Part shown: one piece after another, positions 3,606-38,551 of the stretch
Position numbering within the stretch: the stretch's first letter is position 1
Layout: every line of letters starts with the position of its first letter
Assembly: GCA_022813865.1 (NCBI GenBank)
Contig: JALDZX010000105.1
Coordinates: 1-38,551 of the forward strand
Source: Xylographa opegraphella
Lineage: Eukaryota
Direction of reading: 5' to 3'
Length of the DNA stretch: 38,551 bases
Position numbers and translations under genes: made by a program
The notes under the pieces: generated by a model
Databases searched by the model: none
What the model was told of the DNA's origin: nothing
The model's input: the letters and a program-made list of their open reading frames with translations, nothing else

Positions 3606-4187
3606 TAGATTTTTTAAATTCGATTAAATAATCGATTCTGGCGTTTTTTTATATATAATTAATTGATTTAAACTTTTTAATAAAATTTTAATTTTTAATC
3701 AAAATAAAAAAACCTTAAATAAAGATTTAAAAAATTATGTATTAATTACGTTAATACGATTATTATATAAAATTCAAAAAATTATGAAATATCTTTAATT
3801 TTAATTTTTTATATTTTTAATTTTGATATATGTTTTTTAAAATAAACAAATATACGAGAAAAGCTTACGTAATAATTTTAATAAAGAAACTATATATATA
3901 CGATTAAAATAATAAATAAATAATTCTTACTCGTAAAAAAGTGGCGTATATATTATTAAAAAAATAGTAAAAGAATTTAATAATTTCGCTTTCGCTATTT
4001 TTACTCGTAGTAAAGTCGAGCGTATATTATTTATTTAAAATATAAAAACGGGTAATTTTTTGAATTAATTGATATTTTATATTTAATTAAAAATAGCTTA
4101 AATTGCTAATTAATAATAAAAAATTTACGTTTAAATAAAAGAAATCTACGTCGCTTAAAAATAATATAATTCAAAATATAAAATTTC

Positions 4188-7100
4188 ACTTTTAGCATCG
4201 TCGTTTTGCGTATTTAAAATATATTAAAATGAAAAATTTATATAAAAGAATCAAAAGTTAAAAACCAATCGTCGTTTCATAAATTATTAATAATATTTAC
4301 GCAATTAACGTTTTTTGAAGTTTTAAAATTAAAAGAATTCCGTCGTAGATAAACGTAAATTTAAAATTCTCGTTTCAATTTTAATTAAAATGTATAAACT
4401 CTTGTTAATATTTCGCGGAGGCTATTTTTGTTTCTTTTTAATTATAAATAATGATTTAAAAAGAAAATTTAAAGTATTTTTATTAAAATAAAAATTAAAC
4501 GCAATCGGGGATCTAAATAAATAAAAATAAATTATAAACTTTCAATTTAGAAATTTTTTTAGAATAATTTATAATAACGTTTTTGAATTTAAATTTATTT
4601 TAAATAATTAAAAGGTAAATATTAGATTATTTTATTAAATATAATATTTTATAAATTAATATAAAATAGTATTGTCGAATGATAAATATAAATCTCGAAG
4701 AATTTAATACGCGTAATATTTAAAAATTTAAATTCTTATTAAATTTTAAATAAAAATTAAATTAACTAACGTTGATTTGAAAAATCGAATCGATATTAAT
4801 TTTATAATTAACGATAAATTAATATCGCGTAAAAAACCCTAAATAAATATCATTTTTAATATTGAATATATTAAAGTCTGGAAATATAAATACTATTTTT
4901 ATATTAATTCGAAATTATTACTTTAAAAAATTTATACCGCTCGGTCGTATAAAAATATTGATAAAATACGTTAATAAAATTAACAAATAATAATGTTTAT
5001 AAATATTAAATTTTTAACGCGTTATCAAAAGTTACGCGATAAAATTTAAAAAAAGATTTAAAATTAATTAATTTCAAATTTTTAAAATAAACTGCTAATG
5101 TTTAATTTATTAAAACTTTTATAAAAGAAACTTTATAAATTGTTTGCAAATAATATAAGTATTGTATCAATTCAATAGAAAGACTTGTTAAAAAACCTCG
5201 AAAAAGGTTTTAAATTTATAAAAAATTTGAATAATTAATTATATTTATAAGCTTATCAAATAAGCTTTTTCGCTTCTTTAGAAATTTCTTTTACTAATAA
5301 TTAAAGTTTTTATATATAATAATACCCAAGCGAAACGATTTAATCGATTAAAGTATTTAAATTGCGTTATCAATCGTCGAATTTTTTTATTTAACCATTT
5401 AGAAAGGAATTTAATAAAATTGATTTAAATATAATTTATTATTAAAAAATATTTTTAAACTTTAAAAGAAGATTTGACGAAACAAATTTATTAATTAAAA
5501 TTTAAAGATAATAAAAATATTTCGAACCAGCTTAAAGAATTTGTTATTCAAAATTGAAGAAAAATTAAATAATATAATATAATTAGCGTTTTAGCGAAAA
5601 ACGATAAAAACGATAAAATTAATTACGAAATTAGATATCGTTTTTATTTTATTGATATAAAAAAAGCAGTTAACGACTCGAAATAAAGAAAACTACAAAA
5701 AATTATAAACGCGAAATTATCGCATTTATATTTAACAAAATCTAAAACAAAATTACTAAAGAATGTTAATATCGTTATAAATAAATAATGATTTAAATTG
5801 AAATTTTACGTTAACGATTTATTAAATAAATCTAAAATTTATATTGTAATAACAGAATTCTGTTAGAAATACGACGTAAACTACGAAAATATTTTTTATT
5901 TTAATTATAAAATATGATACGTTTCGCCTTTTTTCGCGTTAAAAATAAAAACAAAAAGAAAAACAAAAAGAAAAACAAAAAGAAGAACAAAATTAAAAAC
6001 AAAATTGAAAACAGAATTAAAAACAAAATTAAAAACAAAATTTATATAAAAATATTATATAAAAATATTATATAAAAATGTTATATAAAAATATTATGTA
6101 AAAATATTGCAAAACTTTTACGACTTTAAATAAGTAACTCGTAGTTAATATTAACGCTGTATTTAAGATTTTAAACGAATTAATTTTAAATAATATAACG
6201 CTAATTTTTCTTTGCTATTTGACTTTAATAAAGAAGTTTAATTATTTTTATACGTAAACGATATCGAAATCGCAGTATTTTATTAAATTAAGGTTAATTA
6301 GTTTAAAATCAAATTCGCGAAACTTTTTAAAGTTAAAAACTTTTTAAAATTCAAAACTTTTCAAAATTAAGAAACATTTAAAAATTTAAATTACGCGCGA
6401 TAGAAAAAATCGCTTAATTCGTTTAAATTAAATTCATTATTTAACAGCAATTCGTAAGGCTATATATAGAAATTAACAAATGTAAAATAATAAAAATTGT
6501 AATAAATAATTACGACTCGCTTCGACTAATCGACGTCGAGAATGAAAAAATAAATTAACGTAAATATTAATACGCAATTAAAAATTTAATATACGTAATT
6601 ATATATAAATGTTTGAATTTCGTTTTTACAGTAAAAAATTTAATATCAATATTTCAATAATTTTATAAAGTATTACGGCTGCGTGTTAAAAAGTTAATTT
6701 TATTACGTTCGATCAATAATTAATTTCAAAATAATTTACGAAAATAATAAAAGTTTTAATTTTATTATTTATTTCGATTTTAATTACGCGATAAATTAAT
6801 AGAACTAACCTTTTATTTTTAAATGCGTATATATATTTAACGAAAGATTAATTGCTTTGACTAATTAAAAGCAAAAATTAATATTTATTTTAATTATTAA
6901 AATTAAATATATAATTCTGCCCAGCTGCGCGGAAAAGAAATTGAAATTATATAGTTATTCAAAAATCTCGACTGCAATATATATTAAAATATTGAATTAA
7001 ATAGTATCAATATTGTAAAAAGTAATTAATATTTAAAAAAAACTTATCGATATAGTTAAAAAATATAATATTATTAACGTTGATTAAAAATGTTTATATT

Positions 7101-7250
7101 AACCAAAAATTTAAATACATTAACATTATTTATTATATTACTAGAAAAATATTCGAATAAGTTTATTTTTACGGAAAATATAATCGCAGACGAATTAATT
7201 AAATTACCATTTAATTTTGATTTTAGAAGATTTATTATTTAATTGAATTT
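4188..7250 (+). pseudogene. pol: Copia pol pseudogene (GAG-pre-integrase, integrase, RT, RNase H)
   Basis: 'F*HRRFAYL' at ~4191 (LWHRRFAHL); 'GGYFCFFLIIN' at ~4416; RT start ~5780-5940; 'YVNDI' at 6251 (YVDD); SDSDYA-like motif at ~6770; IADGLTK-like motif at ~7182. Confidence 0.85.
5941..6108. repeat. Compound A-rich tandem repeats (AAAAACAAAAAG / AAAACAAAATT / TATATAAAAATAT) inside Copia RT
   Basis: Visible 12-14 bp units between the 'FRLFFA' and 'LYGLKQ'-like RT motifs. Confidence 0.8.
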
Positions 7251-7294
7251 TAAAAATACTAACAATTAGCGATTTAATAAATATTAAATAAAAA

Positions 7295-7713
7295 TATTAA
7301 GAATAACGTCGCTTGATAAAATCTTTCTTCTATTGTTTTAAAAATATAAACGTTAGCCTGTTATTAAATTGACGTAATTATTAAATTAACGTAATTATTA
7401 AATTAACGTAATTATTAAATTAACGTAATTATTAAATTAACGTAATTATTAAATTAACGTAATTATTAAATTAACGTAATTATTAAATTAACGTAATTAT
7501 TAAATTAACGTAATTATTAAATTAACGTAATTATTAAATTAACGTAATTATTAAATTAACGTAATTATTAAATTAACGTAATTATTAAATTAACGTAATT
7601 ATATATAAAAAAGTTTTTTTCCTTAAAAAGAAAGCAATTTTTTTACGCATTTTAATAAATAATTTAATGAAGTACTGATTTCACCATTCTGATTCCATTT
7701 ATTTATTTAAATT
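7295..7713 (+). repeat. Copia 3' LTR (RIPed)
   Basis: 'tattaagaataacgtcgcttgataaaat' and 'aatgaagtactgatttcaccattctgattcc' are transition-mutated versions of the reverse complement of 1572-1771. Confidence 0.8.
7360..7600. repeat. 18-bp tandem repeat TTATTAAATTAACGTAA(T), ~13 copies, inside the LTR
   Basis: Direct reading. The equivalent position in the sister LTR is the N gap. Confidence 0.9.
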
Positions 7714-8102: not shown

Positions 8103-8462
8103 TGATAAGGTTCTGATCAATATTGTGTGAAACAAAGGTCGGAGGAATCTTATTTCGGATGCCTCCTTCGCCTCCCAGAAGGCATGAAAGGCATGACCCT
8201 TTTGCCTTAATGGTCTTCCTCGAGAGGTATAAAAAATATCTCAAAATAAAACTTTTATATAAAGTAAAGAATTTCCTTCATTGTAAAAGACGTATTCAAT
8301 TTATATTATAACCTTAAAGTAACAGGCTTTGATACAATATTATACGAAAATTATTATTTTCAAAAAACAACAAACTTGTTACTGTACCTTTTTATTTATT
8401 TATTAACGAATTCAATTCAAATCTTTAATCGAATTATATTAATAAGAAATAAAATCGTAATA
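8103..8462 (+). repeat. 5' LTR of the chromovirus
   Basis: Starts TGATAAGGTTCT and aligns end to end with 14146-14509, mostly by transitions. Confidence 0.92.
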
Positions 8463-8522
8463 TTTTAAAATATTCTTAAAATAAATATATTAAAAGCACG
8501 ATTATATCCAACCCTAAATATT

Positions 8523-13333: not shown

Positions 13334-13565
13334 TGTTACGGCTCGCTATCTCACCAGAAAAGCAGGCCTAGAACCACAGCTATAGGTGAGCGATTTCAAC
13401 CTAGAATAATACAAGGAAGCAAGTTTANNNNNNNNNNNNNNNNNNNNNNNNNNNNNNNNNNNNNNNNNNNNNNNNTAACCGCTTTCGAACTAGCCTGAGT
13501 CCCGGACGCGCTTTAGTCTCGTTCCGTCTATCACTTGTTAAGGTGCCATGTAACACGCCGTTACA
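13334..13565 (+). mobile_element. Un-RIPed LTR (solo or collapsed element) inserted in the chromodomain, TSD GGGAA
   Basis: TGTTACGGC...GCCGTTACA ends. GGGAA at 13329-13333 and 13566-13570. Removing the insert restores the codons TGG GAA CCA (W-E-P). Confidence 0.93.
13428..13475. other. Assembly gap (48 N)
   Basis: Run of N inside an LTR. Confidence 1.
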
Positions 13566-13660: not shown

Positions 13661-14089
13661 TCAGGAGAAAAAAAAAAGAGAAAAAACCTCGAAAAAATCG
13701 TTAATAAAGGCTTTCGCCTCCCGACGTTTATTATTTTTCAAGGTTTCGATGTTAGATATTTTACGCTAAAATATCTCCCGTTCCTCGTTTTCAATATTTA
13801 AAAGTCGATATTTTTTACGTTCAAGAGTTTCTCTTAATTTAACCACTCGGCGTTTTATTTTACTCTTTCGTTTTTTTAAATTACGGCGGTCGGTCTCGAT
13901 GATAATTTAAAAATAACGAGTTTTAGCGGCAATACAATTTGCGCAGAACTTCGACTTCGAACTTTTTTTATAAACTAAATGTTTCTTAATATAACGATCG
14001 TAAGAATACATCGTAAATTTTCTATTATTACGAATAATATACGACTGAACCTTTGGGCGGAAAACGCTAAATAATTTATATTTTGACAT
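13661..14089 (-). pseudogene. Antisense extra ORF of the chromovirus: Zn(II)2Cys6-like cluster plus coiled-coil-like segment (RIP-damaged, ~143 codons)
   Basis: 'YDRYIKKHLVYKKSSKSKFCANCIAAKTRY' gives C-x2-C-x6-C-x8-C-x2-C-x6-C when TAY codons are reverted to TGY. The frame continues past TAA (13907) and TAG (13766) as 'ETDRRNLKKRKSKIKRRVVKLRETLERKKYRLLNIENEEREIF*RKISNIETLK'. An un-RIPed homologue lies at 26574-26404. Confidence 0.8.
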
Positions 14090-14145: not shown

Positions 14146-14509
14146 TAATAAGGTTCTAACCAATATTGTGTAAAATAGGGGTCGAATTTTTTATTTCAAA
14201 TGCTTTCTTTACCTTTGCAAAAGATATGAAAAGCATAATTTTTTTGCTTTAATAGCCTTCCTCGAAAGGCATAAAAGATATTTTGACATAAAACTTTTAT
14301 ATAAAATAAAGAATTTCGTTTATTGTAAAAGACGTATTCAATTTATATTATAATCTTAGACTAATTAATAGGCTTCAATACAATATTATACGAAAATTAT
14401 TATTTTTTGAAAAACGATAAATTTGTTACTGTGCTTTTTTATTTATTTATTAACGAAATCAACTCAAATCCCTAATCGAACTATATTGATGAGAAGCAGA
14501 ATCATATTA
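14146..14509 (+). repeat. 3' LTR of the chromovirus
   Basis: TAATAAGGTTCT...ATCATATTA; aligns to 8103-8462. Confidence 0.92.
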
Positions 14510-14952
14510 TTACGAAATTATAAAATACTTTATTTAAAAAAATTAAAAAATACTGCTTTAAAAAGCGACATAAAATAGTTCGCTAAAAAAAGTTAAATAA
14601 AACATTTTATCGAAAAAGTTAAAAATAGCCGCTATTTACGAAGTTTTATTTTAAACAGATTAAATTTTTAAAAAAATGTTACAAATAAAATATCATTTTG
14701 CATATAAAATAGCAAAAATTATTAAGCGAAAATTTAAATCGTCGTAAACCCGACGACGTTCATATATAAATATATAATTTTATAGTTTTTTATAATTAAT
14801 ATAATATATTTATCTATTTTTATATTTTATATAAAATAATCACTGCGTAATCAATATTTATCGTACCTTTCAATATTTCTTGCAAAAAAAAATTGATTCG
14901 AGCCTGGTTCGAGTCTGACTCGAGTTTGCTTATTCAATTCGAGTTTACGCTT

Positions 14953-15224: not shown

Positions 15225-15493
15225 TGTAATGGAATTATATATGCTTCGCAGTAATATTCTATAGTGAAAACGACAAATAATCATTAAATAAAGAAAATAA
15301 AGGAGCGTAGCGATTTTATATCATTGAAATTACGATTATATTAATTATTTTGTAGCCAGAAACTGTACTAAATTAAATTTATTGAAAATCGATATATATT
15401 ATACATTATTTTAAGAATACTTTTTTAGAAAAATTGTATAATAAAAACGCGAAACGCTTTTATTAATTTAAATAATCGTCCAATCTTATTATA
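15225..15493 (-). repeat. 3' LTR of the 10.8 kb element
   Basis: TGTAATGGAATTATAT...TTATTATA; aligns with 25724-25990. Confidence 0.88.
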
Positions 15494-18934: not shown

Positions 18935-21900
18935 TTTTATAAAGTTTTAAGCGTTTTTTAAATATCGTATTACGTATGATTAAATTATTAAATTTAATGA
19001 GGGTATAATTATTTCTATTACAATTTATTAATAAAATTCTGTACGACTCGGTTCATCAAAATCCAAGCTTTTTAATTATTAAATGATTTTTTTATTTCAT
19101 ATTATATAAAAACCAGGTTCCCAGGTTAATATATTTTATTTTTAACGTTTAAATTTTTATTTTAAAATTATTTATTTTGTTAGCGTATTCGTTCGAATCG
19201 AGCAATAATTTTCTTTAGAATTTTATTACGTTAAAGTAATTATTAACTTTATATTACTAATAAATTAGCTTAATTTTTAATAGTATTTTAAAAAAGCGTA
19301 TTTTAAGTAGCGATTCTCGTTTTAACGAATAAAAGATAATAATAGTTATAGATAAATTTAAATAAGGTTTTTTTATACTTTAACGAATAATAGTACGATT
19401 AGTTTATATAATAACGTATAAAAAATTTAAATTATTTATTTATTATCTTTGAAAGGCTATCGATTATAAATTTCCATTTTTTTCGATTAAATCGCTGCTT
19501 AAAAAATTGTATATAAACGCGATTACCCGTTTGATTTTATATAAATTTATTAAATTATTCGTTTAAAGCTTATCTTCAAAATTATTATTATAAATAAATT
19601 TTTCGAAAATTTTATGACGCGTAATTATATTTTTAATATAAAATTAGCGACGGCAGCTAAAAAAGGCCCTTTTTAAAATACGAGTTTTTAATTAATCAGA
19701 AATATCCTCGCAGGCGTGAATCAGATAATTTTTTTCTTAAATATAAATGATTTAACTATATTAACAGCGACTTTCTCAAACAAAATAGTAAAATAAAATA
19801 TAAAAATATTATTATTTTATAAAACGCGATCGCGTATTTGATATTCGTAATATATTTAGTAACATTTCTTGCAGATTTTATATAAATCGTTTTATTAAAA
19901 TAATATTAAATCTTTACGATAAATACTCTCACTACCTTTATAGCCCGAATAATTATATTAATAAATAATTATTTTTATTATAAATTTTTACGATTTATAA
20001 TATATCGTATAAAAATATTTTTCAAAGAGTTTGCCGTCACGGACTAAAAACCTTAAAGTTTTTTTTTTAAATTTAAAGAATTATCGTATATTTAATTTTT
20101 ACGAGCGTTTGAAAATGGTTAAATATTTCGCGATGTTGATATATTTTTCGTTATAATTTAATATGAAATTTATAATAAAGGTTTTTTCAATTAATTTTAA
20201 ACTTTTTATTATAATATTTAAAAGTTCGAAATTTGAACTTGTAAATATCAAATCGTTATTATTTATAAATATTTTCAGTACTGCGTAATAAATTTTTACT
20301 ATATTAAACTAAGAATTCAGGAATTGTTTAATACTATTATCGTCCATTTTATTATTTTTAGGCATCCAGAATCGTTTTAAAAGTTCATTAACGATGAAAT
20401 ACTTTTTTTAAATACGTATCGTATATTACAGTTAATATATGGAATTTATATAAATTATTAATTAAACAATACTTCGAGTATATTCGCCACGCCCTTGCTG
20501 AACTAATTTATTAAATTTTAAATATTTATTTTAAATAATAAAATAAATCTCGTATAAATATTATTTAATTTTTTTTAAAAATTTTTAAAATTTTAATAAA
20601 ACTTAATACTCTCGCTTGCCTGTATCGTATATGACTTTTATAAAATATTATATTTTATTATTATATTTCTAAATATACTTTCAAAAACCGTTAAAAGCAA
20701 TTTTCATAAAAAAAGATTTTTATTTTATTAAATTGATATTTATAATTAATATAATTTCGCGTTTATTGAAGGCCTCGTAATTTAATAATTAAATCGCAGA
20801 GACAAAAATAATGCAAAGTTTTAAATAATTCATAGCTTTTTATTGGGTTTTCTCCCATATAATTTTTTTTAAAAACGTATATCGAAGCTGCGATAAAAAC
20901 AAAACCCTTAATTTGTAAACGAAAATAAATATAAATATTAATAAAAACACGCATATTTTTCAAATTTATATATAATAGCTATTTAATAATTTTCAAAATT
21001 TTCATTAATTTCGAGGTACGTTCATCAAAATCATAAATAAATTTAATAATCTTTAGATACTTGATGATAAAATAAAATTTTAAAGTTAGTATATACTGAC
21101 CGGTAGTTTTAACGTTTAGAAGTCTTTTATTTAAATTTTATATATATTTTAAAATATAACGACGGGTTTTAGGCAGCGCTTCAACGTTATTATAAATAAT
21201 ACGAAAACCTTTAACATCGATATTATTGATAAATATACAAACAATTATAAATATTAAATTTTTTAAAATTTAAATTATTATTTTACAAAATTAAGCGACC
21301 GAATTTATTAATTTTTCAATAATAATATAAGTTTTTTAAAACCCCTAAAGGTATTTAAAATTGTATACAATTACGGCTAATAATATTAAATAAAATTTAG
21401 TTATATTTTAACTATATATTTACGAGACTAACGAATTTTAGGCCTGCAAATTCTTTGATAAAATCTTAAATGTTCGAAGGCATAATGACATTTTAAATGA
21501 AAGTTTTATTAATTAACATAATAGTATTAATTAACATAATAGTATTAATCAGTCGTTATTTCCCTTTATTAGCTTTTTTTAATCAAAAATTAAAAATTGC
21601 GATAAAATTTATAATATTATTTTAAAATCCCCGTGTTCAATCGATTTTTTAATATTTTAATAACCTTTGATTTTAAAGCTTTAAAAACGTAAAATCCAGG
21701 TGCCTATTATATTTTATACTTGATGATTTTCATTTTCTGCGAAAAGGCAATTTTTTTACGAATTTAATTAATATAAATAAAGTTTTAACCTAAAAATGCT
21801 TCCTTGTTAAATAATATGATTAAAATCAATTCTTTTATTTACAATTGAATATTTCTCAATTTTAAAATTTTAACACGCTTTAAAATTAGCTTAACATTAA

Positions 21901-23000: not shown

Positions 23001-24042
23001 AATAATATTTTAAATAATCGTGTTTAAAGGTTTTTTTATTATTTACGTAAAATTATTTTTACTTATATTCGCTAATTTATTTATTAATTTAATATTTTTG
23101 ATCTTGGGAATCGATTTATCTGTCTGCTTCGTCTTGCTTTTTTTTGCCTTTATTTTTATTCTCGAATTTAATTTGCTTTTATACTCGTTTATAATTTATT
23201 TTTCCATTTTTATTATAATTTTATTATTAATGCCGTCGGGGGGATTTTTAATAATCAAATATTAATGGCCTTATTTAAAGCTCGGGGGGGGGTTTTTAAT
23301 ACGTTAAAAGTAAAGTTTTTAAATTAATCGTTTTATTTAATTTTAAAGTTTGCTATATTTTTTTGAATTCTTTTTTCAGTATTCTTAGTATTTTTAGTAT
23401 TTTTATTTGATAATAATTCTTTCGAGAAACGTCCACGCTAACGCTTTTTTAATTAATTTGAAATAACTATATTCATATTATAACGTTTTAAGGTATTATT
23501 GATTAATGTATTTTTCATTTAATATTTGAATTTTTATTTAAAATATTTTCTTTTTTAAAATTTATATTTAAGTTTAAATTCTTAATACGTATTTATAAAT
23601 AATTAATTATATAAATTTGTATTGCCTGAATGTTCTGCCGCTTATAATATTTGTAAAGCAAAAAAAGTATTATATTTAAATTATAATATTATTGAAAAAT
23701 ATAAATATTTTATTGTTATTAATAAATTTTTAATAAATTCTTAACTGCTCGTTTAGGTAAATACGGCTTATTTTATTAAATTTATACAATTAAAATAAAA
23801 TTTACGATAATAACTGAATTTATAATAAAAATAGCAAAAGAATTTATTATATATTTACGCGTTCGTACGCTCGTAGCTTTTAAAAGTTTTACGAAATATA
23901 TTTGTTTAAAAATTTCATGGTATTAACCGTATAATTATTTTAAAATTACTTTTTATAGTTACTAAGTTTAAAAGGCCGGGTAAAAATTGCGATCGAATAA
24001 TTATGATTTTATATTAATTAAATTTATAGTTTTTAATTTAAA

Positions 24043-24270
24043 TTTTGAATTTTGAATTTTGAATTTTGAATTTTGAATTTTGAATTTTGAATTTTGAATT
24101 TTGAATTTTGAATTTTGAATTTTGAATTTTGAATTTTGAATTTTGAATTTTGAATTTTGAATTTTGAATTTTGAATTTTGAATTTTGAATTTTGAATTTT
24201 GAATTTTGAATTTTGAATTTTGAATTTTGAATTTTGAATTTTGAATTTTGAATTTTGAATTTTGAATTTT
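24043..24270. repeat. TTTTGAA 7-mer tandem repeat, ~32 perfect copies
   Basis: Direct reading. Confidence 0.95.
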
Positions 24271-25704
24271 ATTTTTTAATTCGAGTGTAAAAAATTTTAA
24301 TAGCTTTAATAGGTAAAGTTTTATTTTGAAATTTGATCGTTAATTTATTTACGTTTGTATTTTTCAGGGTAGCTATAATATAAATCTCCTTAATCTTTTT
24401 AATAATTATTATTTTCGTATTTTGAATCTTTTTATCATCAATAGTAAAAATTGAATTATATTTTCTTTTTTTAATAAGATTTCGCAAATTTTGAATACTT
24501 TTTTTCATTTTGAAAAATTTTTAAACCCCTTTTTTTAAGCTATATTTTTTGCAGTTTTAATTAACTTTTTTTCAAAATTCTAAATTTTCGCTTCGTTAAA
24601 TTTTATATTTATTTTTTTAATAATTTTAATTCGGCGTCTTTTTATCAGACCGTAAATAAATTGTAAATAAATGATATATTTATTAAATTTAAATTTATTG
24701 ATTATCTGATTAGTCATTAAGTAGTGTTAATAGCGGTCATTTTTAAGTTTTAATTTTTAGTTACAAATTACTTTTTACACTACTTGAAATATACACTGCA
24801 ATAAATTTTTTAATTAATATTTTAATTAAAAAAATTCTTGAACAATCGTTCGATTAGTTTATTTCAGTTATTTTATTCGAATTTTAAAAAGACCTTTATT
24901 CAAATATTTATAATAAAAAATAATACTTAAATAAACGCTTAACTCGTATACTATTTGCAACGCCGTAATTAAAATACATAGTTCTATAATTATTAATTAA
25001 ATCGATAATATTGAATTTATTAAAATAAAATGCCTTAACGAATCTAGGTGGCGCTATAAATATATAAATAACATAAAAAAAAGCGAAATATTTTATTTTA
25101 TTATATTAAATTCGAGCTTTTATACTTAAATACAAATACCTTTAAAAACAAAGATTTCGGGCGAGTTAAAAATATATTAATTTAACTAATAATAATAATA
25201 TAAAAACGATAAATATAAACAATTATTAATAATATAACTGCTGTAGCTACTAAATTCGATCGCTATAAAAATTAAAAAAATTCGATATATATGGCTTAAA
25301 TATAATTTTTATTTTTATTTTTAAATTTTTAAATATTATACCTAAAAGTTTTGAATTGTAGCATTATTAGTAAAGAACGTTTTAATAATATGTTTAAATA
25401 TTCCTTAAATTTAATTCGCTACTTTAAATTAATCATTTGGCGATTTAAATAAAAAGCTGTTTTTTAATCGTAAAAATTACTTTTTATATTTTTTTAGGGA
25501 AAATTTCGTATTTTTTTATCATATAAAAATCTGGCCCTCGCTTTTCGCTGATTTCCTGGCATTTTTGCCTTTGATTTAAATTATTATAATATCTATTAAA
25601 CTTTTAAATTTGTTTTATCGTAATTTCAAAAGTTTTTACCGAGGTTTTTCGAGGTTAAAATAATTATTTATTTATTTAATTTTTTTTTAAATATTATACT
25701 TTGA

Positions 25705-25723: not shown

Positions 25724-25990
25724 TGTAATAAAATTATATATTTTTGCAGTAATATTTTATAGTAAAAACGAAAAATAATTATTAAATAAAAAATAGTGAA
25801 GCGCAGCGATTTTATATTATTAAAATTACGATCATATTAATTGTTTCGCAGTAAAAAACTGTACTAAATTAAATTTACTAAAAATTAATATATATTATAT
25901 AGTTTTCCTAAGAATACTTCTTTAAATAAATTATATAATAAAAACGCGAAGCGCCTTTATCGATTTAAATAATTATCGAATTTCACTACA
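25724..25990 (-). repeat. 5' LTR of the 10.8 kb element
   Basis: TGTAATAAAATTATAT...TCACTACA; aligns with 15225-15493. Confidence 0.88.
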
Positions 25991-26401
25991 AACGTTTTAT
26001 ATGAAACATAAAATTTTGAACTCGAGGTATAATACGTACTTAATTTATTAAGCTAAAATTAAAAAGGGAAATTAAAAATCGCGAATTCTGATTATGTATA
26101 TATATATTAAACTTTTCAATTAAAAAGCCACGGTTAAAACGTAAATAAATGAAAAATTACACCTAAAATATAAATAAAGGAAAATCACGTTTAAAATATA
26201 AATAAATAAATAAACGTATATATCGATAAATCGAACGCTATTATAAATTTTAAGTTTTATAGCATTATTCTTTTTTTATATTTGTCAATTTTAAAAAATT
26301 ATAAATATTCTCGCAATACGGGCGAGACGTAAGTAAATTATATTTACAAATTTTGTAAAATAAATATATAAACGAAATATAAACTATTACGAATATAAAT
26401 A

Positions 26402-26680
26402 CGCGCTTTTACCTCAACACATTGCGCACAGAAATCAGAATCCGCAGAAATCTGACACAAAACACCTTCTTTAACACAGCGATCGCAACGATGCATTGCG
26501 AATTTTCCTTTTTCGCGAATATCAATGGATTGGACCTTTCGGCGATGGGAACTGGACGACTTGTGTTTAGGCATGATGAAGATAAGCTGCTGGAATTCTT
26601 TCGGAGCAAGAATCTGGCGGGGGAAGCTAGTGATAAGGTTCTGACCAATACTGTGCGGAACAGGGGGTCGGGGGAACCAT
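26402..26680 (+). mobile_element. Un-RIPed fragment of a chromovirus 3' end (antisense ORF 5' part, PPT, first ~48 bp of LTR)
   Basis: Colinear with 13915-14190. TGATAAGGTTCTGACCAATACTGTG at 26631 matches the LTR start at 8103. Confidence 0.88.
26404..26574 (-). pseudogene. Truncated Zn(II)2Cys6-like antisense ORF with intact codons
   Basis: MPKHKSSSSHRRKVQSIDIREKGKFAMHRCDRCVKEGVLCQISADSDFCAQCVEVKAR gives C-x2-C-x6-C-x8-C-x2-C-x6 and is cut exactly before the sixth Cys. The ATG is 57 bp from the LTR start, as in the 14089 copy. Confidence 0.85.
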
Positions 26681-27656
26681 AATTCTTTATTCAAAACGAT
26701 GTAATCAAAAAATTCGATTTTTTATTTATTAAATTCGTATTTGTACAATTTTATTCGTAAATCGACCATTTTCAATATTTAAAAATATTTTCTAGTATAT
26801 TAAATATATTTCTTTTTATTGATAAAATATATTGATATATCGTTCCTATATACGATTATCAATATATTTAAATATTTTTAAATACGTTATTCATATATAT
26901 TTAGAAAAATAATGAATATATTAATTGATATAAGAAACATAATCGTATACTCGTAAAGATTAAGTCGTATTTTTATCGCGATTTTCCACTGTTCGCCTTT
27001 TTTTTATACGAATTCGATTATACGCTTCTGGTATATCGAATTTTATAAATCAATTTGCTTTTTAAAATCGATTTTATAATTTCAAAATTAATGAAAAAAA
27101 TACCTATTTTTAATAATTATATTATTTAATTCTTGATAATTAATATAAAGTCGAGATATTCCGTTTTTCTTTAAAACGAATAATATTAAATATTTCGCGA
27201 ATAGTTACGATTTTCGTATAAAAACTTTTTATTTTTTATTAAAGGATTCTCGTAATACAAATAATTTTTTACTAACAAAAAATAAAATAAAACATTTTAA
27301 TTTTATAATTAATATACTAAAAAAGTTTCATTTATAGCTTTTTTAATATAAAGCGTCGAGATTTCCTTATACTTTTTATAAATTTAAATTATAAAAAATG
27401 TTTCTTTATTAATAAATTTAATTTATAGAATTTTCATTTCGCTTAAATATTCTCCTTATAAACTTTTTAAAAGAGATTGCGTATATTTTAAATTCGTTAT
27501 TTAATAAATTTGCGTTTAAAAGCATTTTTTATTCCTGAAAAAAATTGTTTATTTAATTTGATTAATCTGTATTTTTTTTAATTATAATAACCCCAATATT
27601 TTATCGTGGCCTCTTATTATCTTTATATCAAATGATACAGTTATAGCGTATGATTT

Positions 27657-27838
27657 ATTTCGTATTTTCGTATTTTCGTATTTTCGTATTTTCGTATTTT
27701 CGTATTTTCGTATTTTCGTATTTTCGTATTTTCGTATTTTCGTATTTTCGTATTTTCGTATTTTCGTATTTTCGTATTTTCGTATTTTCGTATTTTCGTA
27801 TTTTCGTATTTTCGTATTTTCGTATTTTCGTATTTTCG
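27657..27838. repeat. TTTTCGTA 8-mer tandem repeat, ~23 copies, inside the protease region
   Basis: Direct reading; it generates the spurious ORF 27650-27847. Confidence 0.95.
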
Positions 27839-30136
27839 TTTTTTTAATTAACTTTTTTAACTGTATTTTAAAGGTTTTTTTATTAGCGCTATTATTAAGA
27901 TTTTTTTTATTTTAAAAATTAATTTTTGCTCTTTTCGCGAAATTTAATAATATAAAGTTTACAATAGCTTTTAAATCGATTAAAATTTTATTATAATAAT
28001 TATTTATATAAATTATTACTCGTAAATTTTCCGTATGATTTATAATTCAAAAACATTTGTTTAATGATCAATTTTAACTATTTAAATACTTTTATATTTA
28101 TTCGAAAAAATTTTGTAAAACGTTTTCGTCGATTTCTCGAAGGGCTCACTAATTTTTTACCGCGGATTTAAACAATTTTAAGAATTTAAAGTTTTTACGT
28201 TAATTTTTTTCTTTAAATACTTTTTAAAATTCTAGCGATTATATTTTTATTTAAACGTTTAAATTGTTTATTTTAACTTTGGCGTTATATATTTTTCGTC
28301 GAATATTGTATATTTTGTTAAATAGTAAATATTAACTTTATTAATAAATATTCTTTTATAATATTTCTGTATCGTATTTAATTCTAAAGTTGATTTCTCT
28401 ATAATTAATTATATAACAAGTTAATTTAGTCATATAATAACGTTTTTTAATTTTGTTATTGAAATATTATAATATTTCGTATAAACCTTGTATTATAAAA
28501 TAATATATTTATTCTATTTTGATAAAACGTAAATATTTTTCTAATATTATTAATATTTTTCTGGAAAACTGAGTTTTAAAGTACGTTTTTAAATATATAT
28601 TTAATATTAAATTATAAATTAATTTTTATAAAATAAATCTTTTTCGTTTATTAGTTTTTAGTTCGCTATAAATTCGTTTTCCTCTTTTTGTTTTTTTAAA
28701 AAATAAGTCGATTTTGATTATTATATCCTTTAAATTTTTACAAAATTCTTGTATTTAAAAATTTTAAAACAATTTAAGTTTTTTCTTTTAGAATTATTAT
28801 TATTTTATAAAGTTGGCTATTTAATTAGCGGTACTCGCTTTTTGCTTTTTAAATGTTATATTAAGTTCTAACTACTCGGATTGCTTATATTTTTTAAAAA
28901 ATCTTTTATAATTCGATTAATTAAATCGCAAAAAAGCTTAAAATTTAATTTATATTTTTAATAGCTTTTTTTCTCGTCTTTTTTTAATTTATAATTAAGA
29001 TATATATTATCTGGCTTTTTCTCGTACTCGTTTTTTTCTAACATGTTAAAGCTCGAAAATTACATAACGCGCTTGATTATTTATACTATTTTTTAAAATT
29101 TTAATATTAAAGGAAATTGTTCAAAGCCGTTTTTATTATTATAATATATAAAATAATTATTATCGTAATAAACTGTTTAAAACACGCTACTATAATTTTA
29201 CTTTACAGTTACGATTAATTTCTATTTTTAAAATAATATATTTTTCTTCGATAGTAATTTTTTTATATTGATACTAATTTTCTTTAACTATTGATAATTT
29301 CGTGCGAGATATTTTTCGCGGTCGCAATTATAAAACTTTTTTTTCTCAATAAATTTCTTTTACTAATTTTCATTTTACCTTATTCTACGAAACTGCTTTA
29401 AATGTTTCGTAATAGTATTTAATTTTATTAAATCAATTTCGTAATAATTTCGATTTTTTATTATTATAATTTATATTTTTATATTTTTAATATAAAATTA
29501 TTGGCATTCGACAATTTTATTTTTTATTATTTAACGTTGATAAAAGCGATTGTCGATCGTAATCGTTTTAAAAAAAATTAATTATTCGATTTCTCTGCTT
29601 TAGGAATATTATTTTAAAAAAAATTTAAACTTTATATAAAATTACGTAATTTCAATATCTTTGTCCCAGTTAACAAAAACGATAATATTTCAAAAATTTA
29701 AAGTATATTCAAATATTAATTCTCGCTGAATTAAATTCAATAGCTTTTTTTAATATCATTTCAAAATTCATATCTTTATTTTTATTTTTTATTTAAAATT
29801 AGTTCAGTTGCCAAAGATTTTTTTGATAATTATTTTTATTTGTTTATACGATTGCTTACGAAGTTAATAAAATAAAATTATACGTCCGTAAACGTTTTTC
29901 CTCGGCAGAACTTTATAGCGAATATAATAAGAAAATTTATTTAAAACTATTCGTTATTATTTTATATGTAAACATTTATTTAACATAAAAAGGTTTTTAA
30001 TTTATTACGTTCCTTATTATGATCGTTTAATTTACGAAACGTGATAATCTTTTTAACATGACTTTCTCGTTTTGCGATTAATTTTAAGGTCGATATTTTA
30101 TTTCAACTATATACTTTATTAAAGTAATATTTGAAG

Positions 30137-30454
30137 TATAATGATGGGTATTCCTTTGAACAGGGGGTAAAGTAGTACCAGCGATTATAAATATTTATTA
30201 AGAAATATAAAGAGGGTTTATATTTATATTAAAATCATTCATTATTTACGATATATAAATGGAATACGCCAGAGCCCCCAGGGCTTTTAACGTCTTTATA
30301 TAAATATTTTATCATTATAATTTTAGTTGTTTTAGTATTTTTAGTATTTACTGTTAATATTATAATGATTAAAAATCTCTTGATATTTTGTTGTATAATT
30401 CCGCCGGGCCCCTTTGAACACTATCTTATTATGACTTGTCGCGAGTTCGTGACA
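30137..30454 (-). repeat. 5' LTR, same family as 37583-37902
   Basis: Plus strand TATAATGATGGG...GTTCGTGACA versus TGTAACGGTGGG...CTTCGTAATA at 37583-37902; gag follows on the minus strand. Confidence 0.78.
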
Positions 30455-31190
30455 GATTTTTAACATAATAACAGGCAACGTTAATATATTTCGATTTTTC
30501 GTAAATATAAACGTTTTTAAATAACGTTAATAATATCTGATCTTTTTAGCTATATCGACGAGATTTCTTGATATTGATTATTTTTTATAACATTAGTATT
30601 ATTTAATTCGATGTTTAAATATTTGCTGTAATCGAGATTTTTCAATAACTATATAATTTAAAATGTTTTTTTTTCGCGCAGCTCGACAGAATTATATATT
30701 TAATTTTAATAATTGAAATAAATATCAGTTTTCGCTTTCGACTTGCTTAATTAATTAACTCTTTATTAAATATATATACGTATTTAAAAATCGATTTTCG
30801 ATTCTATTTGTTTATCGCATAAATAAAATCGAAATAATTAATAAAATTGAATGTTGTACTATTCTTATAAATTACTTTAAAATTAATCGATAATCGAACG
30901 TAATAAAATAAAGCTTTCAATACGCGATCGTAGTATTTTATAAAATTATTAAAATATTAAATTAATCTTTTTAAAGCAAAGACGATATCGGAACACGTAT
31001 ATATAATCGCGTATATTAAATTTTTAATTACATATTAAGATTCGCGTTAATCGATTTTTTTTATTTTCGAGGCTGATTCATTAAAATAAATCGTGATTTT
31101 TTATTAAAACTTTTACTATTTTACATTTATTAATCTTTATATATAATTTTGCAAAAAGATTTTTTAAATAATAAATTTAATTTTAATGAA
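30455..31190 (-). pseudogene. Copia RT/RNase H fragment
   Basis: Reverse complement is colinear with ~6420-7140, e.g. 'attctgtcgagctgcgcgaaaa' versus 'attctgcccagctgcgcggaaa'; 'SKYINVA' corresponds to SKHIDVA. Confidence 0.85.
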
Positions 31191-31191
31191 T

Positions 31192-31439
31192 TGTCACAAG
31201 TACTGCTAAAAGCGGGTAATTATGTAAATAATAAAAATTAATGATTTACAGAGTCGAAAGCTTCGTTTAAATATATATATAATTTCTTAATTAAACAAAA
31301 GGCTTTTATAAATCATTTATAACAAAACCTTTAATAAGTAATCAAAGTAACTGCAGCCAAAGTTTGCACTTTATAATTATAATGAGGATTTATAATTTAT
31401 AGTTATAACTATAGTAAAAACCTGCGGCCTATAATTACA
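31192..31439. mobile_element. Probable RIPed solo LTR
   Basis: TGTCACAAG...ATTACA ends; same TGTCACAAG terminus as 33060. Flanks are ATGAAT/ATAAAT. Confidence 0.55.
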
Positions 31440-31512
31440 ATAAATACTCGATATAAAAATAAAAAGCTTTCGCCTTGAAAGCGCTGTAAATAAATATTTT
31501 AAAATAAACCCT

Positions 31513-31610
31513 ATTTTTATTTTTTATTTATTTTTTTATTTTTTTATTTTTTTATTTTTTTATTTTTTTATTTTTTTATTTTTTTATTTTTTTTATTTTT
31601 TTATTTTTAT
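31513..31610. repeat. T6-7A low-complexity tandem repeat
   Basis: Direct reading. Confidence 0.85.
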
Positions 31611-33420
31611 ATTTTATACGCCAAACGATCGATGCGTTTAAAAATTTTAAATAACTTAACACATTTTTAATAGATTTCTCGTTGCTCGATATTTAATACG
31701 TTATATTTTTTATATAATTTCAAATTTACTATATTTCCCTTTTAAAAGAAAATCGATTTATATTTTAAATCATGGTAAATTTTTATTTTTATAAATATAA
31801 ACGCAATTACGTTTTTCGTATCGATATAAATAAATTAATATTTATTAACGTTCGCCATGCAAAAATTATCAATATTATTAAATAAAATATTTATGTTATT
31901 ATAAACATTATTATAATAACGTTTTCTCGTCGTAGTTAAATAAATAAATATAAACGGCTCAGTCAAAATCACATTTTTGATTTTAATGGATTTTATATTC
32001 TCGAGTTTTAAAAAATTTAGGAATTTTTTATCGTTTTAAATTCATAAAGGATTTATATAAATATTTTATCAATAAATATAAAATTAATAAAATTACAAAA
32101 AATCTAGTTAAATCGTAGTAAAATATTATATTAATTGAATATAGTCTTTAATATCGCTTTATAACATCGCAGTATAATTTCCACGGTTTAATTTAAACGT
32201 TCAAAATCATCGTTCGGCTATAAATAATGAAATATAATATGAAAAATTTACTTTAAATGCTTCAAAAATTCCTTTTTAAAATTCTTTTATAAATTTTCGA
32301 TTTTTATCAAAAAGAATAGTTTTAAACACTTTTTAATAAAGCAAATATAATTCATTAAATAAAATTATAATATATATCTTTTTATTAATAGTTATTTTTC
32401 CACAAATAATCGGAATAGCTTTATTAAATTTATATATTTATTTTATTACGTAATTATATTTATTGAAATAAGATTTGGCAACTTTAATATAAAATCAATC
32501 GTTATTATATTTAAAAAACTTAAAAAACTAGAATTAATTATAATAAACTATAAAACTTATATTAAAATATTTAAGAAAATTAATATTGTAAATAATATCG
32601 AATATATACGTATAGCTTTTTATTTATATTAAAAATATATATAAATTCAATTAATTTTTAATATGTACGATCGTATTCTTCATAATCCATGCTATTATAA
32701 ATAAGTTTAAAAATATTTTTAATTATAAACTTGGAAATATAAAGGCGAAAACTTTATTTAACGTCGTTAAAATAAAATAAAATATTAATTATATAACAAG
32801 GGATTTAAACTTTATTATTTTTAATGATTTTTTCGACGCGTATTCATCGCAAATCTCATAACTATTTTTTATTCAATTCTTTTTAAAATTTTCGCCTATT
32901 TATACTATAAATATTAAATATACCGACATCGATTTAATTATATAAATAAAAACTGCGATTTTTTCGAATGTTAAATCGCGTTAAATTTATTCCTTAAAAT
33001 AATATTCTACTTCATCGATTATTTAAAGGCGTAAAAATTGAATTTATTAAATTTATATCTGTCACAAGCAATTTGATTGTGTTGAAAATGTGAAAAATAT
33101 TTCATTGTAAAGGCCCGAAGGCAACTATATAAGGGGGCTGGGTTGCCAAGCAATTTCCAAGCATTGTCCAGTGTACGCATCGACCAGCGTTCTGTGTTAA
33201 ACACGTAACAATATCGTACGTTAAGTTTAAATCGCTGAGAATACTTTTAAAATCGTATTAGTTTGAGATATAACTTTTTAATAAATATAGTATTAAAACT
33301 TATTTATTTGAATATTCAATACGTAGTTAAATAATAAATAAATATAATTATCGATAAATTCATAAATTCTGTTATATATCGCCATCTTTTAACGATTTAT
33401 ATTAAATCAAAAATTTTAAT
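31611..33420 (-). pseudogene. Gypsy integrase-region remnant
   Basis: 'FERLN*TVEIILRCY' at ~32205-32160 (SERLNQTVE..LRCY) and 'FKIFKRIDRLAYK' at ~31650-31613 (GPF module). The upstream limit is uncertain. Confidence 0.7.
33060..33210 (-). mobile_element. Un-RIPed solo LTR (151 bp) with perfect TSD ATATC
   Basis: TGTCAC...GTAACA ends. ATATC at 33055-33059 and 33211-33215. TATA-like motif at ~33126. Orientation is inferred from similarity to 3363-3605. Confidence 0.92.
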
Positions 33421-35398
33421 TATTAAAATTCTCGCTTTCACAGGGTAGATTAGGGACGTTAAGAGATCAACGTTCAATAAAGAAACAACTCGGTTTTAAT
33501 TACCTCTCGTTGCTTCCTGGTGTTTTTATAAGCGGTATCTAACGGTATAAAAAACATTTTAAATAAAATATTTATATAAAATAAAGGATTTCCTTTATAA
33601 TAAAAAACCTGTTGAATTGATATTACAATTGAATTTATAAAATAAAAAACTTTAATACAATTTGGTACGAAAACTATTATATTTTTAAAAATATTATGTT
33701 TATTATTATATTTTATTTATTTATTTATTAACGAGTTTAATCTAGGTTTTTAATTAAGCTGTATTAATAAAAGTTAAAAATGTAATATTTTAAATATTTT
33801 TTAAAAAAGGGGATTAAAAGTATAAAAAATTCATTCTTAAATTTTATAAAAGGCAATGGAAGAGATGTTATGATCCGAAAAAATCGCGTTAAAATAAAAA
33901 AACCTGATAAATATAAAGAAAATAAAAATTGTTTAAAAAATTGATTTATATAAATAAATATATTTTTCGAGTTCCAGGGGAATAGCGTTTTAAAGTTATA
34001 AGGATCTTTTTTCGTTATTATTTATATGCGAAAACAATTTGAAAAATAAATCGTTTTTTACTTTAAAAAATATTTTAAAGATTTTCGATTACGTTAAATT
34101 CAAGTGATTAAAATAAAAAGTTTTATGACGTTCAAAATTAAAATTAGAATCTTTTTTAAATTATTTAACGAGAAAAATATAGCTACATAAATTATATAGT
34201 ATTTTAAATAAAAAAATTTTACGTAAAATATTTAACTCGATTTTAATAATTCGCAATTTAAATTAAACAGAATAATAATGCTTTAATTATAATATATCGC
34301 AGAGGATTAAAAAATTTAATAATAAATAAGTTAATAAAGATTAATATCGCAATTAAAATTATAAATTGAATAATTGAGAAATATATAACAATTGATAATA
34401 AACTATACAAAAAGATTATAAAACGATAATACGAAATCGAAGGTAGAGTAAAAATAAATTATTAAAAAACGATTTTAAAATAAAAATTTTTATATAAACG
34501 CTAAATCCTTATGAATCAATCTTAATAAAAATAAACGTATTTTAAACGTAAAAATAAAGGTTTGGAAAATAGCACTCACGAGGTAACAAAATTAAAATTA
34601 TTTATTATATATATAAAAAAATTGATTATATAGCTAAAAATTATGAATTAAAAAATTATGAATTAAAAAATTAAATACTTAAATTATAATAAAATATATA
34701 TTAAAGATTTCCGGTAAAGCCGAAGTTTAAAAAAGCAATTAATAACTATTTTTATATAGAGAAAAGAATACGAAATTTGTTTTAATTATAAATAATTGAA
34801 TTAATATTAGTAAAAAATCCGAACAAATTATCGTATAGAAGATTTATATTTGATATAAAACAGATTGCCTTTGAATAGAAATTAACAACAACGAAAAAAG
34901 CGATTTAAACGTTAATAATTTATAAATCGAATTTTTTTTGAGGATTAAAACGTTAAGTTAAATAATCTCGAAAATTAAATTTTTAAAAAAAATAACGAGT
35001 TAATAATGTCGATAAAATTTGAAAAAAAAATATATAATTATCGAGTAAGTTTAAAATATTTACGTTACGGTATAGTATATGATAGTATTTACATAAATAT
35101 ATACTATAAAATTTATTAAAAAATCCTAAGTATAATAGCTATACAGAAAAAGCCTATTGTAATATTTAAATCTGAGATAAATACTTTAAAAATAAGTGCT
35201 TTTAATATTTAAAAAAATAAAAACATTCATAATTGTTAGGGTAAATAAAAATAAAATTTAAAAAAAAGTAATAGACCTTTTATTATCCCTAAGAAGTATA
35301 AAATTTAAATTTAAATTTTTTTAAAAAAGAAAGCTTAACGTTTTATTTAAATATCAATTTTAAAATTGCACGATTAATCTCGAGTCAGGGAAAAAACC
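33421..35398 (+). mobile_element. Truncated, internally deleted relative of the 8103-14509 chromovirus (5' LTR ~33421-33787, gag, RT start)
   Basis: 33545-35215 is colinear with 8225-9840; 35265-35398 matches ~10615-10755, so the protease region is missing. Confidence 0.85.
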
Positions 35399-37582: not shown

Positions 37583-38490
37583 TGTAACGGTGGGGTTCCC
37601 TAAAACAGAGGGCAGAATAGTGGCAGCGATTAAGGATGTTTAAAAAAGGTGCAAATAAAAAAGGGTTGTTTATTTAAAACTAGCTATTGCCTTCGATACA
37701 TGAATTAAATATAGCTAAAGTCCCTAAAGCTTTTACTATAATTATATAATAGCCCTGTTATTATAGTAATAACTTTGATAGTCGTTTTGATATTTTATAT
37801 TTATACTATAATTATTATTACTGACTGCTCGATTTAAACTATACTATTTTTTGGGCTACTTTTAAAAATTCATTTTATTATAGTATTTAGCGCTTCGTAA
37901 TACTAACTCCTTTTTTTAAAACATTTATTTCTAAAAAAAAGTATTTTTTAACATATCGTTCAAACGTCGAAATAACTATTATAAACTGCTAATAAACAAG
38001 GTAAAACACTTTAATATTTATATAGCGTTTAAATGCTTGGCCTATTAAAAAGCGCAATTAAATTATGTTGTTTTCGATTATTTTAAGTCGTATCTCGCCT
38101 GCCTTAAGCGTAGTTGATTTTGCGATATAAATTTTTTTTTAATTTTAACTTCGTAAAGATTAAAAAAACAGAATCTTTTAAACGCTAAATTAAAAACGGC
38201 GGAAAAATAAATAAAAGCTACTTTTCTAAAACGTCGTTAAATAATAAAACAAAAAATATTTAATAACGCGTAAAGCGAAAATAATCGCTTATCAAGGTTA
38301 GTTACTGGTTCCTATGTATTTTCGTTATTTAAATGTTTTTTTACTTGATAAAATATTTATGTGTATTATCGTCGAAGTTCTGAATGTTATTCAAAACTTT
38401 CTTTATTTTCCCATTTTGGCTCCTGTTTTATTAAATACTTATTCGGTATTCATATTAATTCTGGAGCTTTTAACGATACTACTTTTAGTA
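37583..38490 (-). mobile_element. 3' end of a RIPed chromovirus: chromodomain, antisense ORF region, PPT, 3' LTR (37902-37583)
   Basis: Minus strand 'KKVL...KYFIK*K...ENT*EPVTNL' at ~38405-38292; PPT-like AAAAAAAGGAGTTAG at 37917-37903; LTR homologous to 30137-30454. Confidence 0.82.
37953..38270 (+). pseudogene. Antisense Zn(II)2Cys6-like plus coiled-coil-like ORF in a second chromovirus family (RIP-damaged)
   Basis: From ATA (de-RIP ATG) at 37953. 38034-38123 reads CLAY*KAQLNYVVFDYFKSYLACLKRS*FC, giving C-x2-C-x6-C-x8-C-x2-C-x6-C with three intact TGC and three TAT (from TGT). It is followed by 'RLKKQNLLNAKLKTAEK*IKATFLKRR*IIKQK'. Confidence 0.72.
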
Positions 38491-38551
38491 GTGTGGTGGA
38501 TTCGGGGCGGGTCTTTTGGGCGCTTTTTGATTTGGAGCTTCCTTCCTCACG

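Follow-up and report, generated by a model that had tools for sequence, protein, structure and literature searches.

A probable remnant of an antisense accessory gene beside a retrotransposon long terminal repeat in Xylographa opegraphella

The damaged reading frame at the contig end

Contig JALDZX010000105.1 of Xylographa opegraphella (assembly GCA_022813865.1), analysed over its full 38,551 nucleotides and called the window below, contains close to its right end a damaged open reading frame (ORF; hereafter the tail ORF). It is probably what repeat-induced point mutation (RIP) has left of a small accessory gene of a long terminal repeat (LTR) retrotransposon. The G+C content per kilobase ranges from 16 to 29% across the window and stop codons are abundant, which we take to be the signature of RIP (C-to-T and G-to-A changes) in a fungal repeat graveyard; every copy of the gene within the window is dead. 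The features discussed here, including those of the well-defined element 1 that lies elsewhere in the window, are collected in Table 1.

Table 1. Positions of the tail ORF, of element 1 and of associated features in the window (PPT, polypurine tract).
Feature	Position	Strand	Basis or remark
Tail ORF (antisense ORF relic)	37953..38270	+	106 codons, 5 stops; codon 1 is ATA
Six-position Cys module of the tail ORF, C-x2-Y-x6-Y-x8-Y-x2-C-x6-C	38034..38123	+	Pattern search, chance tests, paralogues
K/R/L-rich stretch past the module, perhaps once a coiled coil	38124..38270	+	RIP-compatibility with the first-family helix
LTR of the tail element, 320 bp, taken as 3' LTR	37583..37902	-	End-to-end alignment with 30137-30454
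PPT-like purine run GTTTTAAAAAAAGGAGTTAG	37903..37920	-	Adjoins the tail LTR; ends AGTTAG
Second LTR of the tail family (TGTCACGAA...TTATA)	30137..30454	-	Aligned with 37583-37902
GC-rich, very high-copy unrelated repeat, cutting off the interior of the tail element	38492..38551		Contig depth
LTRs of element 1	5' 8103-8498, 3' 14146-14541	+	Well-defined element
PPT of element 1, GGCAGGGAAAGCTAA	14131-14145	+	The less mutated fragment has GGCGGGGGAAGCTAG
First-family antisense ORF of element 1	13661..14089	-	142 codons before the terminal stop, 2 RIP stops
Cys module of the element 1 antisense ORF	13913-14002	-	[CY] pattern match
Less mutated N-terminal fragment of a first-family ORF (MPKHK...CDRCVKEGVLCQISADSDFCAQCVEVKAR)	26398..26574	-	Relaxed-pattern site 26395-26487

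The tail frame translates as ISFKRRNN...FKCLAY*KAQLNYVVFDYFKSYLACLKRS*FCDINFF..., where asterisks are stops, and it is the frame with the fewest of them: they stand at 38046, 38115, 38154, 38208 and 38238, compared with 8-15 stops in each of the five other frames. The initial ATA and 26 further codons precede a module of three cysteines and three tyrosines at 2-6-8-2-6 spacing, the codons being TGC (38034), TAT (38043), TAT (38064), TAT (38091), TGC (38100) and TGC (38121), and the residues between the second and the third position read xKAQLN. Frame and spacing were found as a preliminary description, made from the sequence of the window, had reported them, and so was the start next to the LTR, at a distance of 51 nt. 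The leader of about 27 residues and the K/R/L-rich stretch past the module were described there as basic and coiled-coil-like, a character that is in part what RIP would produce from any sequence; the latter stretch may once have been a coiled coil. A tblastn search with the tail ORF did not find a second copy in the window, and when protein sequences were searched for relatives of the translated tail frame, no candidate had three 5-residue words in common with it.

The minus strand of the tail LTR starts TATTACGAA and ends ...CCGTTACA. Its start is RIP-compatible with the TGTCACGAA of the second LTR of the same family, and the two copies end in TTACA and TTATA, respectively. Many paralogous contigs cover 37595-37790 within this LTR. 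No similarity was found between the tail LTR and the LTR of element 1, in agreement with the earlier statement that a second element with an unrelated LTR is present. It is the orientation of LTR and PPT, and only this, by which the tail ORF would be called antisense to pol and the tail element a chromovirus.

The pattern [CY]x2[CY]x6[CY]x8[CY]x2[CY]x6[CY] matched twice in the six frames of the window, at the tail site and in the antisense ORF of element 1. The comparison with shuffled sequence that had been proposed beforehand, here run on the window, never gave two matches: 300 dinucleotide-preserving shuffles had a mean of 0.013 matches, with at least one match in 4/300 and two or more in 0/300. 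Since such shuffles understate the clumping of tyrosines in real RIP-mutated sequence, random spacings were scored on the window itself. A set of 3000 random spacings gave 0.062 matches each; in a set of 20,000, from which the three loci in question had been excluded, there were 0.057 matches per pattern, 0.018 with at least two true cysteines and 0.0057 with at least three. The third of these loci (26395-26487, minus strand) had come from a relaxed form of the pattern. A match to the general pattern at 19847-19951 (minus strand), which contains two adjacent stops and has no known context, was taken as chance.

Paralogous copies could be used for reading through the RIP damage. They were taken from the contigs of a public sequencing run of the same organism (X1), placed at 80% likeness, a run that contains the window stretch itself; no contigs of two further runs (X2 and X3) matched the stretch. 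Further contigs, 80-90% like the window, span 37934-38234, and transitions account for 123 of the 156 places of difference. The best-supported 40 of these 156 differences were listed, 18 of them within 37934-38234, and among the 18 only two are A>G changes, one at 38044, found in 5 contigs, and the other at 38065, in 3. They strike the second and the third module codon, both TAT in the window, at the middle base, and G gives TGT in both; with 118 A's in the interval, the probability that both changes fall on predicted former cysteine codons is about 4e-4. The only T>C change among the 18, at 38115 (2 contigs), turns the in-frame TGA into CGA. The first cysteine codon is TAC in four contigs where the window has TGC, and no indel is found between 38034 and 38116 among the differences listed. 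The expectation that less mutated copies would have TGY at the three TAT positions and an ATG at the start was therefore borne out at the second and the third position (5 and 3 contigs, respectively), whereas the fourth position and the ATG are not among the listed differences. The summed contig depth was 730-900 over 37946-38140, compared with 158-215 on the flanks, and leader and module are therefore the part best conserved among the copies. The tail ORF is a multi-copy relic.

The antisense gene of element 1 and its relatives

With stops read as X, the pol region of element 1 gave Pfam matches to RVT_1 (7.1e-9), RT_RNaseH_2 (1.3e-9), RT_RNaseH (8.7e-7) and Integrase_H2C2 (2.6e-11), and element 1 is assigned to Ty3/gypsy because of these domains. 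The Pfam domain Chromo was not detected in element 1 (E up to 0.1 and 10), where 48 N follow the candidate region. The preliminary description calls both elements chromoviruses; the pol of element 1 is of Ty3/gypsy type, and the chromodomain was undetected by Pfam in either element.

Several observations concern element 1 and its copies. The N run at 13428-13475 hides the sequence just past the C-terminus of the integrase. The segment 13334-13409 looks chromodomain-like by eye, which is a lead only, and a stretch of 76 nt on the minus strand (357-432) is 78% identical to it; this relatively GC-rich stretch belongs to a further copy on the minus strand, and in the fragment 250-561 Pfam did not detect Chromo (E up to 10). 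A third copy of the element 1 family (33538-35221; LTR and gag side, 72-78% identity) ends after about 1.7 kb. The fragment at 26.4 kb (about 290 bp) reads MPKHKSSSSHRRKVQSIDIREKGKFAMHRCDRCVKEGVLCQISADSDFCAQCVEVKAR and contains the 3' end of the interior, followed by the PPT (26616-26630) and by an LTR that starts at 26631 and of which the first ~60 nt are present. It lies in a much less mutated island (26398-26690), whose kilobase has the second-highest G+C content (27%) and which is joined at ~26695 to a minus-strand fragment of a reverse transcriptase gene (26695-27269).

The antisense ORF of element 1 has 2 stops in its first 130 codons, compared with 6-19 in the other frames. It scores 79 bits against a hidden Markov model (HMM) of its family that was built without it, and its frame (14089 down to 13661) aligns to the homologues over about 140 residues. 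A HMMER search over 1.84 billion representatives returned two of these homologues, P0001 (177 aa, E 2e-11, 55% identity) and P0002 (202 aa, E 4e-4), to which a profile search added P0003-P0005; all five are known from contigs of 690-8706 nt, those of P0001 and P0002 measuring 8706 and 7930 nt. Together with the element 1 ORF and the fragment at 26398-26574, they are small proteins of ascomycete type. The first-family homologues have 30-55% identity and lengths of 105-202 aa (171-202 aa in full-length members), and share one plan. A leader of the form MPKxK...RRK is found in the members whose sequence includes the N-terminus; the sequences of P0004 and P0005 start just before the module. The six positions follow at 2-6-8-2-6 spacing, with Tyr or Trp for one to three of the cysteines in P0002, P0003 and P0005, and all six cysteines in P0001. 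Further motifs are S/L-L-x-[IV]-[ST]-D-A-D and EMFARE, and the full-length members end in an acidic tail. In P0001, AlphaFold2 predicted a long helix of about 78 residues (65-142) with a predicted local distance difference test (pLDDT) above 90.

Judged by its sequence conservation, the first-family ORF represents a genuine protein family, and it is regarded as old and selected because its database homologues are 30-55% identical. The replacement of Cys by Tyr or Trp among P0003-P0005 (e.g., MRPYDRC, NVSYSLY), on contigs of 690-842 nt, would be expected if these were mutated repeat copies and not host genes. In a metagenome scan with the family alignment, 68 patterns matched and 0 loci were confirmed. 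The look-alikes of P0001 found with a language model are Ascomycota clusters with 62-646 members, and are leads only.

Zn(2)-Cys(6) modules of the Gal4 type follow the consensus CX2CX6CX5-12CX2CX6-8C, and a 2-6-8-2-6 spacing falls inside it; P0001 has cysteines at all six positions, the tail frame has three cysteines and three tyrosines, two of the latter being TGT in paralogues. P0001 also resembles Gal4 in that a long helix and an acidic tail come after the module. The cut-off of the Pfam family Zn_clus (PF00172; 21 bits) was not reached by P0001 (11.5 bits) or P0002 (14.4 bits), whose alignments cover only profile positions 16-38, half of the domain. Over the module, AlphaFold2 gave a pLDDT of 45-57, with two short helices starting at the two CxxC pairs. 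Foldseek, run against the PDB with the model of the 54-residue module, gave no match with an E-value of 0.001 or lower, and the family profile, run against PDB sequences, returned no zinc-cluster protein and only a coiled-coil match at E 0.04. The prediction of a P0001 homodimer with zinc scored 0.02. Since P0001 and P0002 stay below the Zn_clus cut-off and no fold match was obtained, the name "zinc cluster" describes the spacing and does not state membership, and by this spacing only the tail module may be called Zn2Cys6-like. What differs from PF00172 is the score below the Pfam cut-off, a segment from Cys 2 to Cys 3 that has no basic patch, and the lack of a PDB relative by sequence or fold.

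Origin and possible role of the tail ORF

The tail ORF agrees with the first family in position, orientation, leader length and cysteine spacing, as had been claimed. Like the first-family copies in the window, it lies antisense beside the PPT and 3' LTR, with the start codon 51 nt from the LTR edge (57 nt in the first family), the first cysteine 132 nt from it (144 nt) and a leader of 27 codons (29). The ends of the PPT are AGTTAG in the tail element and AGCTAG in the first family. Like the P0001-like proteins, whose leaders belong to the same range of 27-30 residues, it has the six positions at 2-6-8-2-6 spacing and a charged stretch past the module; unlike them, it has no detectable residue similarity to the family.

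Several results weigh against reading the tail ORF as the remnant of such an accessory gene, or against its descent from the same gene as the first family. A G at 38092, which would belong to the fourth cysteine, a G at 37955, which would give the ATG, and a C at 38046 in the TAA stop are not among the best 40 of the 156 differences, so that each occurs in at most about one contig. Codon 12 is ATA in 4 paralogues and CTG in the window, and the assignment of the start codon is therefore tentative. The tail ORF and both window copies of the first family gave no Zn_clus match at E up to 10, and the homologues are also below the cut-off. Neither pol nor a chromodomain was found for the tail element in the window (Pfam, E up to 1; tblastn of element 1 proteins; 37900-38551, minus strand), and beside the sister LTR at 30137-30454 an ORF of this sort is missing (no Cys pattern).

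To these results are added those of four homology tests. The family HMM found nothing in the tail at domain E up to 1000 with filters off. The RIP-compatibility count, i.e., the number of columns in which RIP could have turned a family residue into that of the tail, the six Cys columns being excluded, was 32/86 for the tail with a null of 26.6 +/- 4.2, and 12.5% of 76,552 positions were as high; element 1 reached 56/86. By segment the tail scored 9/29 in the leader, 8/24 in the module and 15/33 in the helix region, the last value being reached by 3.2% of window positions, which is weak and driven by composition. A high count at 3773 (minus strand), which has no Cys motif, was dropped as low-complexity noise. 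With a RIP-degraded family profile, gapped, the tail scored 11-13 bits, compared with a median of 12 over 1176 chunks, and element 1 scored 25-70 bits (52-70 at p 0.5-0.7, and at background level at p 0.9). The anchored DNA identity in a purine/pyrimidine alphabet was 0.552 for the tail vs 0.499 +/- 0.031. A significant match to the P0001-like profile was thus obtained for element 1 (hmmsearch, RIP-degraded profile, RIP-compatibility) and not for the tail. Moreover, local alignment of the tail interior with the 3' interior of element 1 (collapsed and plain) did not rise above the null, 17.5% of random segments being as high.

The earlier observation of little likeness to the first ORF outside the Cys positions is therefore confirmed, since the four tests found none. 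The claim made alongside it, an old and selected accessory gene across diverged families, holds for the first ORF, but common descent with the tail ORF is unsupported by the same tests. Homology, as opposed to convergence or separate capture, is thus unproven, and a common ancestry of the tail and first-family ORFs is plausible but unproven. The match in the cysteines only cuts both ways: the common architecture is real, and homology is unproven.

The strongest of the alternatives, which we nevertheless consider unlikely, is that the tail ORF is real but is an unrelated Cys-rich gene, such as a captured fragment of a host Zn2Cys6 factor or another small zinc protein, which came to occupy the same place in another LTR element, and that the common spacing reflects the zinc-cluster fold and not descent. 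It would account for the absence of similarity outside the Cys positions in all four tests and for the lack of the family signatures MHPCD.CI, DS..C and S/L-L-x-[IV]-[ST]-DAD in the tail; the 2-6-8-2-6 spacing, moreover, falls within the general Zn2Cys6 consensus. However, the near-equal distances from LTR to start and the near-equal leader lengths speak against it, as do the like PPT ends, and a host Zn2Cys6 module would be expected to be basic between Cys 2 and Cys 3, where the tail has the residues given above.

Far less probable is a solo LTR (37583-37902) that landed beside an unrelated, ORF-carrying repeat. The sister LTR at 30137-30454 has neither flank in common with the tail, pol is not visible, and contig depth falls to baseline in the segment that separates LTR core and ORF (37829-37945); one contig runs from 37724 straight on to 38015, with 290 nt left out. 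Yet a purine run lies exactly at the PPT site, the spacing from the LTR agrees with the first family, and the contig just mentioned still connects LTR and ORF in another copy. Beside the sister LTR, Pfam found no domain on the minus strand over 30455-33538, and one of the two LTRs may be a solo LTR.

An accidental alignment of six [CY] positions is excluded for practical purposes and, although TAT is common in RIP-mutated AT-rich DNA (Tyr is 7.1% of six-frame residues), 6% of random spacing patterns match somewhere in the window, the frame is interrupted by 5 stops and has Tyr at three of its six "Cys" positions, this explanation is already close to refuted by the expectation for at least three true cysteines per window, which the required strand and near-family LTR distance cut by further orders of magnitude, and by the TGT codons of the paralogues.

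We return to the tail ORF as the probable remnant of an accessory gene of an LTR retrotransposon. Such a gene would have been encoded opposite to the genes of the element itself, within the short stretch beside the 3' LTR, and its layout matches that of the first-family antisense gene in element 1. Since its start would be ~55 nt inside from the 3' LTR on the opposite strand, it would be transcribed backwards, from or near this LTR. The product might have consisted of a leader of about 27 residues, a zinc-cluster-like module of six cysteines, at least five of which are seen in the window or its paralogues, and a charged, probably helical tail. Intact relatives of the first-family gene are proteins of 171-202 aa that have a leader resembling a nuclear localization signal (NLS; MPKxK/RRK), the module C-x2-C-x6-C-x8-C-x2-C-x6-C, the helix of ~78 residues and the acidic C-terminus. 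This C-terminus, acidic and hydrophobic, would be of the transcription-activating kind, and the long helix could dimerise. The product of the tail gene may have entered the nucleus, bound zinc and possibly DNA, and dimerised via the helix, and might have acted as a regulator of the LTR of its own element or of host chromatin, in the manner of a miniature Gal4-type factor. We divide the weight about evenly between regulation, either of that LTR or of silencing, and the sum of other roles in nucleic-acid or protein binding.

Antisense accessory genes are already known from plant Ty3/gypsy elements and from retroviruses. The protein HBZ of human T-cell leukaemia virus type 1 (HTLV-1) is small and nuclear; it is encoded on the minus strand, its transcription starts from the 3' LTR, and it combines basic regions with a helix for dimerisation and a domain of the activation type. 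It differs from the ORF described here in being a basic leucine zipper and not a Cys-cluster protein, and in belonging to a vertebrate retrovirus, while the fungal ORF is known at the level of sequence. In plants, the Tat and Retand lineages of Ty3/gypsy carry an extra antisense ORF between pol and the 3' LTR (PMD, Tr28/TRP28, coiled coil), in some cases accompanied by a coiled coil and by a domain that probably binds DNA, and these proteins are thought to bind DNA and to regulate the element (PMC4408406, PMC11963269). The placement is similar, but the host kingdom is another one, the domains are unrelated, and the plant interval is 2.9-6.6 kb vs ~0.6 kb here. By placement, HBZ and the plant Tat/Retand ORFs may be regarded as the closest analogues. 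Searches of the full-text literature, with subscription journals and repeat databases outside their range, found no report of such an antisense ORF in an LTR retrotransposon of fungi, and none of an antisense accessory gene whose module resembles a zinc cluster.

If two LTR families indeed have this gene, fungal retrotransposons carried a nuclear regulator of their own, which would bear on the control of LTR promoters and the evasion of silencing by elements, on the annotation of small "hypothetical proteins" in Ascomycota, and on the source of some fungal zinc-cluster factors. A more far-reaching proposal, which we put forward tentatively and hold to be possible but doubtful, is that at least two ascomycete Ty3/gypsy families with unrelated LTRs inherited an HBZ-like antisense gene (NLS, six-Cys cluster, dimerising helix, acidic tail) from a common ancestor. 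This would mean a transcription regulator borne by retrotransposons and until now labelled "hypothetical protein" in fungal genomes, with a possible link to the origin or spread of the fungal zinc-cluster factors.

Further features of the window

The interior of the tail element is cut off by the GC-rich repeat at the contig end, where the summed depth in run X1 rises to ~45,000 from a baseline of 158 and contigs diverge or have loose ends at 38492. This repeat had no Rfam match; in the whole window, Rfam found no family at gathering score.

A unit of 716 bp is present in two inverted copies with 78% identity (6416-7127 and 30477-31192); one of them ends ~22 nt from the LTR at 30137-30454, and the other has no adjoining LTR of that family. 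A direct repeat of 260 nt (15225-15484 and 25724-25981; 83% identity) lies downstream of the 3' LTR of element 1 and again just left of the 26.4-kb fragment. The two runs of N (1650-1697 and 13428-13475) are exactly 48 long each and both stand in GC-richer islands, with mutually dissimilar flanks. Long tandem arrays are found at 27650-27850 (period 8 nt, TTTCGTAT), at 23943-24333 and 7-187 (period 14 nt), and at 7293-7666 (period 17 nt); the 17-nt array is nearly perfect (99%) although its surroundings are RIP-mutated.

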